Assembly: GCA_017450125.1 (NCBI GenBank)
Contig: JAFSWZ010000013.1
Span: forward strand, 78,282-142,281
Length of the DNA: 64,000 bases
DNA from: Synergistaceae bacterium
GTDB lineage: Bacteria; Synergistota; Synergistia; Synergistales; Aminobacteriaceae
Direction of reading: 5' to 3'
The notes beneath the pieces are model-generated. The model was not told where the DNA came from. It did no database searches and worked only from the letters and a program-made list of their open reading frames with translations. The position numbers and the translations under genes were made by a program. Below are positions 48,318-53,010 of the stretch, piece after piece. Numbering within the stretch: the stretch's first letter is position 1; each line of letters begins with the position of its first letter.

Positions 48318-48328
48318 CCCACAAAAAA

Positions 48329-48361
48329 GCGGAGTCTCCTCACACTTGAGAAAACTCCGCT
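48329..48361. terminator. Probable bidirectional terminator between ricT and porin paralog 1
   Basis: AAAAAAGCGGAGT...(inner TCTC/GAGA)...ACTCCGCT hairpin between convergent stops. Long loop, so moderate confidence. Confidence 0.5.
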
Positions 48362-48397: not shown

Positions 48398-49954
48398 CTA
48401 GAACTCTATCGCTGTCCTGAACTTCACGACATTGTCTTCCCTGCTGGCCGCGCCGTTAGCATCGTTATCAGCGTGCATGTAGTTGAGACCGAGTGTCGTG
48501 TAGTCGTTGAGCTTGTACTGTACGCCTAAACCGAACTCCTTCGGGCTGACATCAGCGTTGCCCCACTCGAGCTTGTAGCCGTAGTAGAACAGGTAGGTTG
48601 ACCACTTGTCGTTCCACTCCTGGCCGAGACCGACTCTCCAGTACTTCGTATCAAACTGTATACGCCTGCCGCCATTCATGCCGTACTCTTCCTTCAGAAG
48701 GTCGCCATAGAACAGGATTCCAGTGTTGTTGCCCCAGAAACCCCTGTCATACTGGCCATACTCGAGCCACAGGCTGGTGAACTTCAGAGCCTGCTGTTTC
48801 ACATCAAGGATGGCTGCCCAGTGGTTTGCGTCATCAATGATGTTGTTGTTTGCGTCCAGCAACAAAGAGCCGGTATCCATCCACTTGAGCAACCCGTCAT
48901 TAGGGTCGCGATAGACCATCTCGGTATCCATCTCCTGATGGTAGAACACACCCTTGAAGCCGATGGCATCGTTGAAGTTAAAGCGAAGCCCGCCATACAC
49001 TGTCCAGAGGTTGTTGAAGGACACGTCGCCAATTCTGTGCTCAGTAATATCGCCGTTATTGTCAAGCCCCGTAAACTGCTCAGCATTATCACCGACGAAC
49101 ACCTGTGCTCCGAGATCGAGTCCGATCTGTTCGGTGAACTGGAGCGTAACCTGCGGCAAAATCATCCACAGATCGAACACTGTCGTCTGGCTTCCGTAAA
49201 AATTACCATTACGATCCGTTATACGACCACCGATACTCCATCTGTCGCTGGGATGTGCGAACACTACACGTGCCATGCCCAGCCCGAAGTTCTTGGTTAC
49301 GCCGAAGCCCGTCATTGTCCAGTCTGTGAGGATCTGGTCACCGTCCCAAACGCCCGTGCCGGGGAGGGAAATCTTATAGTCGCCCTCAAGAGCCCAGTTG
49401 AAACGTCCTACAGTCATCTTCGTGTCGAAGAAGAAAGGCATCTCCACGAAGAACCTGTCTAAGCGTCCATTTCCGCCCTCTTCATCGCGAAGTCTTGCCG
49501 CGAAGAAGTAATCCTCATTCTCGCCAAACCTGCGCTCGAACCAGATTCTCGCCTCATCGAAGCCTACTGAACCCTTACCGTCAGGTCCGATTGCGTCGCC
49601 AGCGTCATTACGGCTCTCATTCTGAACATCGAGCACGAGCGTTCCGTGCATGTGCCACCCGCCGAGCCTGTCTTCCAGAACAGCTACTCTCTCGTCAAGC
49701 TCGTCTACCCTTACGCCGAGTGCCTCGAGCTCGTCCTTGAACTCAACAACGAGCCTCTTGAGCATCTCTACGTCCTGCTTGCTGGCCTTCGTCATGTCTA
49801 CTACTGCGAGTGCTCTGGCAAGCGCACTGGCCATCTCGTAACGTGTCGTGGACTGCTGCCCTTTGTAGGTTCCGTCAGGATAACCCGAGAGAATCCCGTG
49901 TGCGGCCAGCTGGCCGATTGCGTCATATGCCCAGTGGTTCATCGGCACGTCCAT
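48398..49954 (-). CDS. SLH-domain OmpM-like outer-membrane porin, paralog 1 (apparently silent: no start codon ahead of its signal peptide)
   Basis: SLH domain (NHWAYDAIGQLAAHGILSGYPDGTYKG), coiled-coil stalk, beta-barrel ending ...VKFRTAIEF. The frame stays open upstream to 50035, encoding KKKLAVIAAVVAVAALAAPAFSATNPF, but begins right after an in-frame TGA with AAA where paralog 2 has ATG. The first ATG (49954) would give a protein with no signal peptide. Confidence 0.75.
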   Translation of the reverse strand: MDVPMNHWAYDAIGQLAAHGILSGYPDGTYKGQQSTTRYEMASALARALAVVDMTKASKQDVEMLKRLVVEFKDELEALGVRVDELDERVAVLEDRLGGWHMHGTLVLDVQNESRNDAGDAIGPDGKGSVGFDEARIWFERRFGENEDYFFAARLRDEEGGNGRLDRFFVEMPFFFDTKMTVGRFNWALEGDYKISLPGTGVWDGDQILTDWTMTGFGVTKNFGLGMARVVFAHPSDRWSIGGRITDRNGNFYGSQTTVFDLWMILPQVTLQFTEQIGLDLGAQVFVGDNAEQFTGLDNNGDITEHRIGDVSFNNLWTVYGGLRFNFNDAIGFKGVFYHQEMDTEMVYRDPNDGLLKWMDTGSLLLDANNNIIDDANHWAAILDVKQQALKFTSLWLEYGQYDRGFWGNNTGILFYGDLLKEEYGMNGGRRIQFDTKYWRVGLGQEWNDKWSTYLFYYGYKLEWGNADVSPKEFGLGVQYKLNDYTTLGLNYMHADNDANGAASREDNVVKFRTAIEF

Positions 49955-50015
49955 GAAAGGATTGGTCGCTGAAAACGCCGGGGCTGCAAGTGCTGCAACT
50001 GCTACAACAGCTGCT

Positions 50016-50032
50016 ATTACTGCTAATTTCTT
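50016..50032. repeat. Left copy of an exact 17-nt inverted repeat (ATTACTGCTAATTTCTT; reverse complement AAGAAATTAGCAGTAAT)
   Basis: Identical in inverted orientation to 51302-51318. Covers codons 2-7 of the paralog 1 signal-peptide frame. Confidence 0.9.
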
Positions 50033-50079
50033 TTTTCAGTACAATACACCTACAATTTTTCCACGAAGGAGAACCCGCC

Positions 50080-51009
50080 ATGATCCTAGAACCATTCTTC
50101 AGGTTTATCGATGTCTCGGAGAAAACAGAGTCCATCTACCGCAGAGCCTTGCGGCAGCTCTTCACCTACTTCACCGAACACGGAATCCTCAAGCCCTCCC
50201 GCGACGACATCATCAGCTTCCGCAGACACCTCGAACGCAAGCACCTCAAGCCCAGCACCATCGCACTATACCTCGCCGCAAGCCGCAGGTTCTTCGCCTG
50301 GACAGAACACGCCGGAATCTACCCCAACATCGCGCTCGGCGTTAAAGCCCCGAAGCCCGAGCCCGGCCACAAACGCGACTGCCTCTGCGCCGAACAGCTC
50401 CGCACAATCCTCGCCGGGATCGACCGCACAACCCCCATAGGCCGCAGAAACTTCGCCATCATCGCCCTCATGTCAGTAACCGGCCTCCGCACAATCGAGG
50501 TCTCTCGCGCAAACATCGGCGACTTCCGTAAAGTCGGCACGCACACCTGCCTGTTCGTGAGGGGCAAGGGACGGTGCACAAAGTCTGAGTTCGTGAAGGT
50601 CCCTCCCCCAGTCAGCTCAGCAATCGGCGACTACATCAGGGAACGCGGCAAAGTTCAGGAGTCCGCCCCGCTCTTTGCCTCAATGAGCCGCCGGAACACG
50701 AATGCCCGCCTCTCCGCACAAACCATCTCCAAGCTCTGCAAATCCGCAATGCGCGCAAACGGCTTCTCCTCCTCGCGCCTCACCGCGCATTCCCTCCGAC
50801 ACACCGCAATAACCTTGTCCCTATCGGCTGGCATACCACTGAGTGAGGTTCAGGCCTTCGCACGGCACAAGAACATCACCACCACAATGATCTACGCTCA
50901 CCACGTCGACCGCCTCAGAAGCCCTTGCGAGGAAGCAGTCTGCGCCGCTGTTTTCCAAAACTTTATACGTGAAATTACAGATTCGCTTGCAATTTTCAGA
51001 TGTGTGTAG
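50080..51009 (+). CDS. Tyrosine site-specific recombinase (XerC/XerD/integrase family)
   Basis: SAM-like N-domain, then TGLRTIEVSR (Arg I), HSLRHT (H-x-x-R), MIYAHH (catalytic Tyr). ATG at 50080 follows AAGGAG. ORF-track N-terminal extension trimmed. Confidence 0.85.
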   Translation: MILEPFFRFIDVSEKTESIYRRALRQLFTYFTEHGILKPSRDDIISFRRHLERKHLKPSTIALYLAASRRFFAWTEHAGIYPNIALGVKAPKPEPGHKRDCLCAEQLRTILAGIDRTTPIGRRNFAIIALMSVTGLRTIEVSRANIGDFRKVGTHTCLFVRGKGRCTKSEFVKVPPPVSSAIGDYIRERGKVQESAPLFASMSRRNTNARLSAQTISKLCKSAMRANGFSSSRLTAHSLRHTAITLSLSAGIPLSEVQAFARHKNITTTMIYAHHVDRLRSPCEEAVCAAVFQNFIREITDSLAIFRCV

Positions 51010-51015
51010 TAATAT
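50987..51015 (+). promoter_or_regulatory. Strong sigma70-like promoter TTGCAA-17 nt-TAATAT reading toward porin paralog 2
   Basis: TTGCAA (50987-92), 17-nt spacer, TAATAT (51010-15). Overlaps the recombinase stop codon. Predicts a 5' UTR of about 275-280 nt. Confidence 0.55.
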
Positions 51016-51298
51016 ACTCCGCGTGCTACGGGAAATACGTAGCGGAATATCGTCAAACCAACGCAGAACTTGTTAGCCAGAAGCAGGGAAAGGAGATGCA
51101 CGAATCCCCGTTCAAGCATTAAGGAAGAGTTCGGACGCGGAGGGCGCAGGAGGTCGGGAGTACAGCCTCTCGGACTGTCAGAGGGACAGAAAGGAAACAA
51201 GGTAACTTTCCGAACCCCCGCAGGCTCAGGGCAGTATATGGACTGAGTGCGTAAAAGGCGATAGTTGATTGACAATTTCATAAGGGGGTTTATCTGTA
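51016..51298 (+). promoter_or_regulatory. Long purine-rich 5' leader of porin paralog 2 (possibly a structured RNA)
   Basis: About 290-nt non-coding gap, the largest in the window. Local hairpins (GCTACG-GGAAATA-CGTAGC; CTCAG-13 nt-CTGAG). RBS AAGGGGG before ATG 51299. Confidence 0.45.
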
Positions 51299-52942
51299 AT
51301 GAAGAAATTAGCAGTAATGTTCTTAGCTGCAGTTCTTGCGGTGAGCGCGGTTGCTCCTGCATTCTCTGCAACTAATCCGTTTATGGACGTACCCATGAAT
51401 CACTGGGCGTACGATGCGATAGGACAGCTTGCGGCTCATGGAATACTTTCCGGCTACCCGGACGGCACGTACAAGGGTCAGCAGTCAACCACGAGGTACG
51501 AGATGGCATCAGCACTTGCGAGGGCACTTGCTGTTGTGGACATGACCAAAGCGAGCAAGCAGGATGTCGAAATGCTGAAGCGTCTTGTGGTGGAGTTCAA
51601 GGATGAGCTTGAAGCTCTGGGTGTCAGGGTTGATGAACTCGACGAGCGCGTTGCTGTTCTCGAGGATCGTCTCGGAGGATGGCACATTGAAGGTTCACTG
51701 GTGCTTGATGTCATAAACCAGAGCAGGAACAGTGCAGGCGATGCGTTTGATGGTGACGGCGAAGGCTCGGTTGGCTTCGATGAAGCAAGGTTGATCTTCG
51801 AGCGCAACTTCGGCGAGAACGACGACTACTTCTTCCGTGCGAGGCTTCGCAATGACGATACGGTTCATGCGCGCTTCGATAGGTTCTTCGTGGAGATGCC
51901 GTTCTTCTTTGACAGCAAGATGACTGTCGGACGCTTCAGCTGGGCTCTCGAAGGAGACTACAAGATTTCTCTTCCCGGCACTGGCGTGTGGGATGGCGAC
52001 CAGATCCTCACGGACTGGACGTTTGATGGCTTCGGTCTCACCAAGAACTTCGGTCTGGGTATGGCGCGTATAGCCTTCGCGCATCCTAGTAGGTATACTG
52101 CCAGTACATTGACGTATGATGCCGATGGGAACATAACGGGTTGGAGAACCACAGCATTGGACACTTGGATGATTTTGGCGCAGGCTTCCCTCCAGTTCAC
52201 CGAACAGATCGGTTTCGATATTGGCGGACAAGCATATGTAGGCGACAATGCAGAGCAATTTTCTGTGGCAGATGTCAATGGTAACCTCACTAGGCATGGT
52301 GCTGGAGACTTGTCCTTCAACAATATCTGGACAATTTACGGTGGCCTTCGCTTCAACTTCAACGACGCTATAGGCATCAAGGGTGTCTTCTACCACCAGA
52401 ACGTGGATATGGAAGAAGTCTATGTAGACGGGAATAATCGTCTCGCTTGGAGAGATCGTGGCTACTTCGGCGGCGGAGCTGGGATGATTGATGATGCCAA
52501 CCACTGGGCAGTAATTCTCGACGTGAAGCAGGCGGCTCTCAAGTACACTAGCCTGTGGCTCGAGTACGGCCAGTTCGATGAGGGCTTCTGGGGCAATAAC
52601 GGCGGAATACTGTTCTACGGCGACCTTCTTCAGCAAACCTTTGGCGGGAGCAGGGCGTACTGGGATACAAAGTACTACAGAGTCGGGCTTGGGCAGGAGT
52701 GGACCGACAAGTTCTCAACTTACCTGTTCTACTATGGATACGTCGTTGAGGATGCTATAGGAGTCTATAATGGTAATGGCGTGTTTCTTCGCACTGAGGA
52801 CGTAAAGCCCAAGGAGTACGGCATCGGTGTAAGCTACAAGCTCAATGACTACACGACGCTCGGCCTCAACTATATGCACGCTGATGACGACGTAGGCCGC
52901 GAGGACAACGTCGTGAAATTCAGGACGAAGGTAACGTTCTAG
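51299..52942 (+). CDS. SLH-domain OmpM-like outer-membrane porin, paralog 2 (expressed configuration)
   Basis: Complete signal peptide MKKLAVMFLAAVLAVSAVAPAFSA. SLH domain and coiled coil identical in protein sequence to paralog 1. Beta-barrel ending ...VKFRTKVTF. Confidence 0.85.
   Translation: MKKLAVMFLAAVLAVSAVAPAFSATNPFMDVPMNHWAYDAIGQLAAHGILSGYPDGTYKGQQSTTRYEMASALARALAVVDMTKASKQDVEMLKRLVVEFKDELEALGVRVDELDERVAVLEDRLGGWHIEGSLVLDVINQSRNSAGDAFDGDGEGSVGFDEARLIFERNFGENDDYFFRARLRNDDTVHARFDRFFVEMPFFFDSKMTVGRFSWALEGDYKISLPGTGVWDGDQILTDWTFDGFGLTKNFGLGMARIAFAHPSRYTASTLTYDADGNITGWRTTALDTWMILAQASLQFTEQIGFDIGGQAYVGDNAEQFSVADVNGNLTRHGAGDLSFNNIWTIYGGLRFNFNDAIGIKGVFYHQNVDMEEVYVDGNNRLAWRDRGYFGGGAGMIDDANHWAVILDVKQAALKYTSLWLEYGQFDEGFWGNNGGILFYGDLLQQTFGGSRAYWDTKYYRVGLGQEWTDKFSTYLFYYGYVVEDAIGVYNGNGVFLRTEDVKPKEYGIGVSYKLNDYTTLGLNYMHADDDVGREDNVVKFRTKVTF
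51302..51318. repeat. Right copy of the exact 17-nt inverted repeat (AAGAAATTAGCAGTAAT)
   Basis: Immediately follows the ATG of paralog 2. Inverted match to 50016-50032. Confidence 0.9.
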
Positions 52943-52975: not shown

Positions 52976-53010
52976 CGGAGGGAGTCAGAAACGGCTTCCT
53001 CCGTTTTTTT
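52976..53010 (+). terminator. Rho-independent terminator after porin paralog 2
   Basis: CGGAGGGAG-loop-CTTCCTCCG followed by TTTTTTT. Confidence 0.75.

Follow-up and report, generated by a model that had tools for sequence, protein, structure and literature searches.

The closest known system to the locus described here, a pair of divergent porin genes in Synergistaceae, is the susC-like shufflon BT1040–BT1046 of Bacteroides thetaiotaomicron with its tyrosine recombinase BT1041, to which the outer-membrane-protein shufflons of B. fragilis are similar (Porter et al., bioRxiv 10.1101/521070). That locus and the present one are both arranged around a central tyrosine recombinase gene. In each, the alternative genes for outer-membrane β-barrels lack their 5' ends, and recombination within the 5' part of the coding sequence hands the sole full-length 5' end, together with the promoter, to another gene. 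Phage pressure has been proposed as the driver of the B. thetaiotaomicron shufflon and its dependence on the recombinase was shown by means of a mutant (bioRxiv 10.1101/521070), whereas for our locus we infer such dependence from sequence. The two systems differ in phylum and in cargo, which is an OmpM-type SLH porin and tether of Synergistota in our case and a TonB-dependent transporter in Bacteroides. They also differ in the number of alternative genes (two here, three there) and in the coding part that is swapped, which here amounts to the ATG only, with the recombinase gene and the promoter riding on the inverted piece.

A further parallel is the vpma/Xer1 system of Mycoplasma agalactiae (PMC2268961), to which M. 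bovis vsp and M. pulmonis vsa/HvsR are related. Both systems have a single promoter for several alternative surface proteins, silent genes that remain intact and a neighbouring Xer-like tyrosine recombinase that inverts, or at our locus would invert, the DNA lying between short conserved sites at the 5' ends of the genes. The vpma site, however, lies in the 5' untranslated region (−1 to −72) and the silent genes keep their start codons, whereas the site at our locus consists of codons 2–7, which leaves the silent gene without a ribosome-binding site (RBS) and ATG. The mycoplasma systems are multi-gene loci whose cargo consists of lipoproteins, and xer1 is a neighbour of the rearranging genes, whereas the recombinase gene here is part of the inverted piece.

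In Lactobacillus acidophilus, slpA and slpB change places when the slp segment inverts (Boot et al., 1996, as described in the review PMC3666127, where no dedicated recombinase is named in the segment). Here too, two complete surface-protein genes are opposed, one of them is silent, the expression site is common to both and inversion activates the silent gene; since the Slp protein is abundant and probably indispensable, this design never turns both genes off. The inverted segment is reportedly about 6 kb in length and carries the two genes. Whereas a chromosomal segment inverts in front of a fixed promoter in that monoderm host with its S-layer cargo, a small promoter and ATG cassette flips between fixed genes at our locus. 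In the flagellar switch of Salmonella the invertible H segment, like the cassette described here, contains both the gene for its recombinase and a promoter that reads outward. Hin, however, is a serine invertase, the switch is an ON/OFF switch for one operon plus a repressor, and no start codon is exchanged, unlike here, since the coding sequence of the target does not include the repeats.

OmpM proteins are the main porins of diderm Terrabacteria. OmpM is also the outer-membrane tether of these bacteria, and homologs have been reported in Synergistetes (bioRxiv 10.1101/2021.05.31.446380). The mechanism that we describe is of a known kind and what is new is the bacterial group and the protein family; the distinctive features are the host phylum, the OmpM cargo, a crossover site that places no coding part of the porin other than the ATG on the mobile piece, and the recombinase and promoter that ride along with it. 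A literature search returned no paper joining OmpM with 'phase variation', and of the two Synergistetes species in one genome survey, one is given as having a putative inversion, with neither the species nor the locus named in the main text.

A porin gene without a start codon and the adjoining cassette

The window, a stretch of 64 000 nucleotides from contig JAFSWZ010000013.1 of a Synergistaceae assembly (GCA_017450125.1), contains two OmpM-type SLH porin genes with 74% identity. Paralog 1 (position 1; 48398–50035, minus strand) is complete except for its start codon and is the OFF copy in this assembly. Its 545 codons translate with no stop and the protein begins KKKLAVIAAVVAVAALAAPAFSATNPFMD. 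Between 50040 and 49950 the minus strand reads ...GTACTGA AAA AAG AAA TTA GCA GTA ATA GCA..., with the first codon, AAA, at 50035–50033 and an in-frame TGA (50036–50038, minus strand) directly 5' of it. The TGA is cassette DNA and is not a conserved feature, the ATG position of other OFF copies being occupied by TAA, TAA or CAA. The original prediction had described an intact minus-strand signal-peptide frame with AAA in place of ATG and a TGA just upstream, a description with which the sequence and the translation agree. It had also placed the first possible start beyond the signal peptide; the open-reading-frame listing concurs, the first in-frame ATG, GTG or TTG after the TGA being at 49954 (Met27), past the A-F-S|A signal-peptidase cleavage motif. 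Its coordinates and statements were correct throughout.

Paralog 1 has a good signal peptide, a Pfam SLH domain and a weak match to Porin_4, and a terminator-like hairpin was found 3' of it by a terminator scan (48328–48361, minus strand). Public gene calls of this paralog (P0004 and P0123, 514 and 518 residues) begin at internal Met codons and would thus give an SLH porin without a signal peptide; a protein homologue search for clusters of at least 90% identity recovered only these truncated calls from this strain and no full-length, Met-started paralog 1. Truncated or odd N-termini of a similar sort occur in about nine of 120 related protein clusters (∼8%; P0006, P0012, P0015, P0024, P0035, P0088, P0103 and P0114). 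For six of the odd entries (the strain's own copy, P0006, P0012, P0024, P0088 and P0103) the locus was read and the gene is a silent arm of the same switch, and P0015, P0035 and P0114 are likely to represent the same situation. Both the 514/518-residue entries and the odd N-terminus clusters would accordingly be silent switch arms, neither pseudogenes nor cytoplasmic proteins.

Paralog 2 (position 2; 51299–52942, plus strand) encodes a porin of 547 residues and is the ON copy in this assembly. Its RBS, AAGGGGG (51282–51288), is separated by 10 nt from the ATG (51299–51301), and the terminator scan placed a hairpin 3' of the gene as well (52976–53003, plus strand). The two paralogs share the 17-mer AAGAAATTAGCAGTAAT, of which the window holds exactly two copies, in inverted orientation (0 expected in shuffles), with no further exact copy in the 2.16 Mb genome. 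One copy, IR-L (50016–50032, minus strand), covers codons 2–7 of paralog 1 and the other, IR-R (51302–51318, plus strand), covers codons 2–7 of paralog 2, so that the repeat encodes K-K-L-A-V-I/M in both divergent genes. Similarity between the paralog 5' ends starts abruptly at the boundary between codons 1 and 2, the sequences 5' of it being unrelated, which upholds the earlier description of the paralog 1 5' end as a homolog missing exactly the RBS and the start codon.

From the placement of the 17-mers and the onset of similarity at codon 2, it follows that the repeats bound a cassette of 1269 bp (50033–51301). The cassette contains the recombinase gene, a promoter-like site, a leader of ∼285 nt, an RBS and a single ATG, which forms its last three bases and has to serve both porin genes, there being no other. 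The 51299 end alone carries leader, RBS and ATG, all of which are lacking at the paralog 1 end, an arrangement that is the same in five other loci. Dyad symmetry and conserved recombinase-binding arms were sought by eye around the 17-mer, but conservation between loci was confined to the bases of the core and of the porin side; the cassette side of the OFF junctions showed none in the same inspection. By analogy, this one-sided conservation recalls the asymmetric sfx sites of Rci.

The recombinase gene (50080–51009, plus strand; 309 residues) is the only gene between the two porins. The protein has Pfam Phage_integrase and SAM-like N domains, and the catalytic motifs (GLRxxE, HxxR, H and Y) can be aligned with those of XerA 4a8e. 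The best NCBIfam matches are all below cutoff (XerD, 103 bits against a cutoff of 330; XerC, 102 against 335; XerA, 119 against 220); the protein is predicted to be Xer-like in fold and motifs and is not filed as XerC or XerD. Only 44 nt separate the start-less frame from the divergent recombinase ATG. A TACAAT/TATAAT −10-like box (50040–50056), situated 25–30 nt 5' of this ATG, is conserved in all three species. The matching −35 element would lie in or beyond the inverted repeat, in porin signal-peptide DNA, a position that could make transcription of the recombinase depend on which porin adjoins.

A candidate porin promoter, TTGCAA-17-TAATAT (50987–51015, plus strand), overlaps the stop codon of the recombinase gene. 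It matches the consensus at eight of 12 bases and for this reason was not listed by the promoter scan, which also gave no promoter facing paralog 1 and none in the 44 nt gap. In three species the −10 hexamer, the 17 nt spacing and five of the six −35 bases (TTGCA, followed by A or T) are invariant, a conservation that suggests this position for the promoter. The leader that follows (51016–51298, plus strand), which includes the RBS, is conserved with a mean column identity of 86% in the three species, in which coding DNA is saturated at synonymous sites. It matches no Rfam family and may be a structured mRNA-stabilizing or regulatory element. Loose ends in other runs suggest that the leader is also conserved before the porins of relatives without the recombinase.

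Both orientations in strains and related species

Contigs of four public sequencing runs were aligned to the segment 48300–53100 of the window. Runs X1 and X2, which probably represent the samples from which the assembly was derived, show zero differences to the window and its arrangement only. Run X12, from a different study, contains a strain that is about 97.5% identical (30 differences in 1188 bases), and a 1432 nt contig of this run, with a depth of 32.6, follows the window from 51203 down to 50016 and then continues with 51319–51562 on the other strand. A second X12 contig joins 50032 to 51301. At both joints, 17 letters are common to the two sides, and the joints make up the reciprocal pair of products that a conservative inversion between the repeats yields. 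We took the 31-letter word given in the Logan run index description as the assembly word length for these contigs; if it is so read, a false join is not expected, as the 17 bp repeat is shorter than the word.

Run X12 shows the flipped orientation only, and each sample showed a single orientation in assembled contigs, which drop minority variants, so that this neither shows nor excludes switching within a sample. All assemblies that encode an identical recombinase (two ENA scaffold records, another ENA assembly and a Logan run) have the window orientation, although the two scaffold records are named in one series and the four may not be independent. Low-depth contigs of run X2 that join RBS, ATG and inverted repeat to a paralog-1-like signal peptide were set aside as not belonging to the same strain, since they differ at five of 63 bases and resemble another species. 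A search of JGI metagenome contigs for the ON junction of paralog 1, with an exact 37-mer and then with a 26-mer, gave zero matches.

Among 107 genomes of the family, a recombinase of at least 72% identity with two divergent flanking porins is found in only two others, G058 and G048, both of the same genus. The flanks of the G058 locus are colinear with the window on both sides (prfB–S55 peptidase...PSP1 gene, porin, cassette, porin, ACT gene, mrp operon) and the recombinase is on the opposite strand. The position-1 porin of G058 reads ...TTGACAATTTCATAAGGGGGTTTATTCATA ATG AAG AAA..., with a normal RBS and ATG, and encodes MKKYAVIAAIVAVAALAAPAFSATNPF; judged by its sequence, it is the ortholog of the start-less signal peptide in the window. 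The position-2 porin has no start. The inverted repeats of G058 are imperfect, agreeing at 13 of 17 bases, from which it appears that some lineages may be locked. The second genome, a goat-rumen Synergistaceae MAG, is in the same state as G058. Three metagenome contigs (L044–L046), found through homologs with odd N-termini, each have a start-less position-2 porin, with frames that open exactly at AAG AAA TTA GCA and with TAA, TAA or CAA at the ATG position. With these contigs included, the start-less copy adjoins the 5' end of the recombinase gene in all seven loci.

Both orientations thus exist in nature, with breakpoints at the repeats. The original prediction had suggested looking for sister strains that carry an ATG here or the opposite orientation, and we find a conspecific strain and two sister species in which the cassette is flipped and RBS and ATG abut paralog 1.

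More distant homologs of the recombinase in the family (38–57% identity) are in no case beside porins and are uninformative on this locus; many of them sit at contig ends. In L010, L011, L012, L018 and L021 such homologs adjoin pairs of 14–23 bp inverted repeats ∼185–440 bp apart, which resemble classic promoter invertons. In Synergistaceae, several phase-variable loci may be under the control of this recombinase family.

A proposed toggle and competing explanations

The silent copy is under purifying selection as strong as that acting on the ON copies. The dN/dS ratio is 0.18–0.19 for the OFF paralog 1 of the window against ON position-1 orthologs and 0.20 for ON against ON, so that the relaxed selection for which a test had been proposed is not seen; for paralog 1 against paralog 2 it is 0.067. 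In the mature proteins the N-terminal ∼105 residues, comprising the SLH domain and stalk, are identical between the paralogs, while synonymous sites are saturated. Position-1 genes are nearer to one another in dS than to position-2 genes, which indicates a duplication older than these species, with both copies preserved intact ever since. All six of the independent loci examined (the window, G058, G048 and L044–L046) have an intact OFF copy. Taken together, the dN/dS values, the identity of SLH domain and stalk and the grouping by dS rule out a decaying pseudogene. The claim that an undecayed signal peptide marks a silent copy awaiting activation rather than an old pseudogene is therefore borne out, and the frameshifts or stops that would have spoken for decay are absent from paralog 1 and from the OFF copies at all six loci. 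The term 'silent cassette' used in the original prediction holds in so far as the copy is silent and could be activated; it does not hold in the sense of copying into an expression site, since it is the expression signals that move and the gene that stays.

We consider it very probable that the two genes form a two-state DNA-inversion toggle in which paralog 1 is silent at present. In this scheme the recombinase would exchange strands within the repeats and flip the cassette, whereby paralog 1 would gain promoter, leader, RBS and ATG in frame, and paralog 2 would be left with the recombinase-proximal end, which has neither a start nor an RBS. At every moment the cell would make one, and only one, of the two porins; neither joint expression nor the absence of both would occur. 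Such a never-off design would suit a protein that doubles as an outer-membrane tether and of which most relatives have one gene. The likely benefit would be a changed surface-exposed receptor or antigen, under pressure from phages, bacteriocins or the host, or changed pore properties. Catalysis by the encoded recombinase, the reversibility and frequency of switching within a population and the selective agent are elements of this scheme that we infer.

The arrangement might instead be a historical and now fixed rearrangement, in which the cassette flipped rarely, through the recombinase or through chance recombination, and paralog 1 was left stranded and has not yet decayed. The contigs, with no within-sample mixture of orientations, and the degenerate repeats of G058 (13/17) fit such a history, but the repeats in the window are perfect, the recombinase is intact with its catalytic residues and the orientation differs even between strains that are about 97.5% identical. 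Moreover, OFF copies that are intact at six loci, with dN/dS as low as in ON copies, are not expected if silent copies are permanently stranded, and the DNA identity of only about 75% between the paralogs outside the 17-mer disfavours general homologous recombination. We regard a fixed rearrangement as unlikely. A second reading, to which we give very little credence, is that paralog 1 is not silent, its translation beginning, with the cassette oriented as it is, at a non-canonical codon such as the ATA of codon 7 or the AAA; this would suit a frame that is intact and under selection. Against it, no in-frame ATG, GTG or TTG lies between the TGA and codon 27, there is no suitably spaced Shine–Dalgarno site, the nearest CTG is out of frame and initiation at ATA would lose the Lys-rich n-region of the signal peptide. 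The 44 nt up to the divergent recombinase ATG also lack a promoter-like site, and orthologs towards which the cassette is turned start from an ordinary RBS and ATG.

That paralog 1 is a pseudogene whose start was lost by a point mutation of ATG to AAA is suggested by the AAA standing where paralog 2 has ATG, but is scarcely credible: similarity upstream stops abruptly at the boundary of codons 1 and 2 instead of being interrupted by one substitution, five other loci have the boundary at this very place, with different bases at the ATG position, the 545 codons contain no stops or frameshifts and dN/dS is 0.18.

Porin architecture and possible consequences of switching

Pfam SLH was found in both paralogs (E = 1e-10) in an N-terminal position after the Sec signal peptide, and in a phmmer search both match the solved Veillonella parvula OmpM1 (8bys/8bym; E = 5e-27). 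In an AF2 model of paralog 2 (pLDDT 83), the SLH domain and a helical stalk extend to residue 124 and are followed by a large porin barrel in which about 18 strands were counted; Foldseek matches of this model are porins, including 8bys with an E value of 3e-11. Six stretches of the paralogs have 40% identity or less, and all six map to odd-numbered connections between strands of the modelled barrel. Given a periplasmic N-terminal stalk, strand parity, rather than the coordinates themselves, would make these stretches extracellular loops, and a long conserved connection (214–241) looks like a constriction loop in the model. The paralogs are accordingly predicted to differ mainly in their surface loops.

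These two paralogs are the only OmpM homologs in this genome, and most genomes of the genus have one OmpM copy. With moderate confidence, we propose a self-contained, never-off toggle of the sole tether and porin of a diderm Terrabacterium, in which a 1.27 kb cassette with its own tyrosine recombinase gene, the single promoter, a strongly conserved structured leader and no coding part but the ATG flips at appreciable frequency between two complete OmpM genes differing only in surface loops; it could change the main phage-receptor or antigenic surface of uncultured rumen and gut Synergistaceae while attachment is kept, and programmed variation would thereby be described for OmpM-type proteins for the first time. 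A toggle with exactly one variant expressed would alter the exposed surface and retain the tether, and two alleles with the same anchor and stalk and with different surface loops would point to strong surface-directed pressure from phages, bacteriocins or the host on these bacteria. The paralog pair offers natural variants for the study of loop function, and a compact module of a recombinase and a 17 bp site that exchanges only the start codon could make a tidy genetic switch.

A third OmpM-like fragment is present in G058 (G058:C2:2-1405). It is 76% identical to paralog 2 and begins at a contig end inside the SLH region, and may be a strain variant or the product of an assembly break arising from the conserved SLH region.
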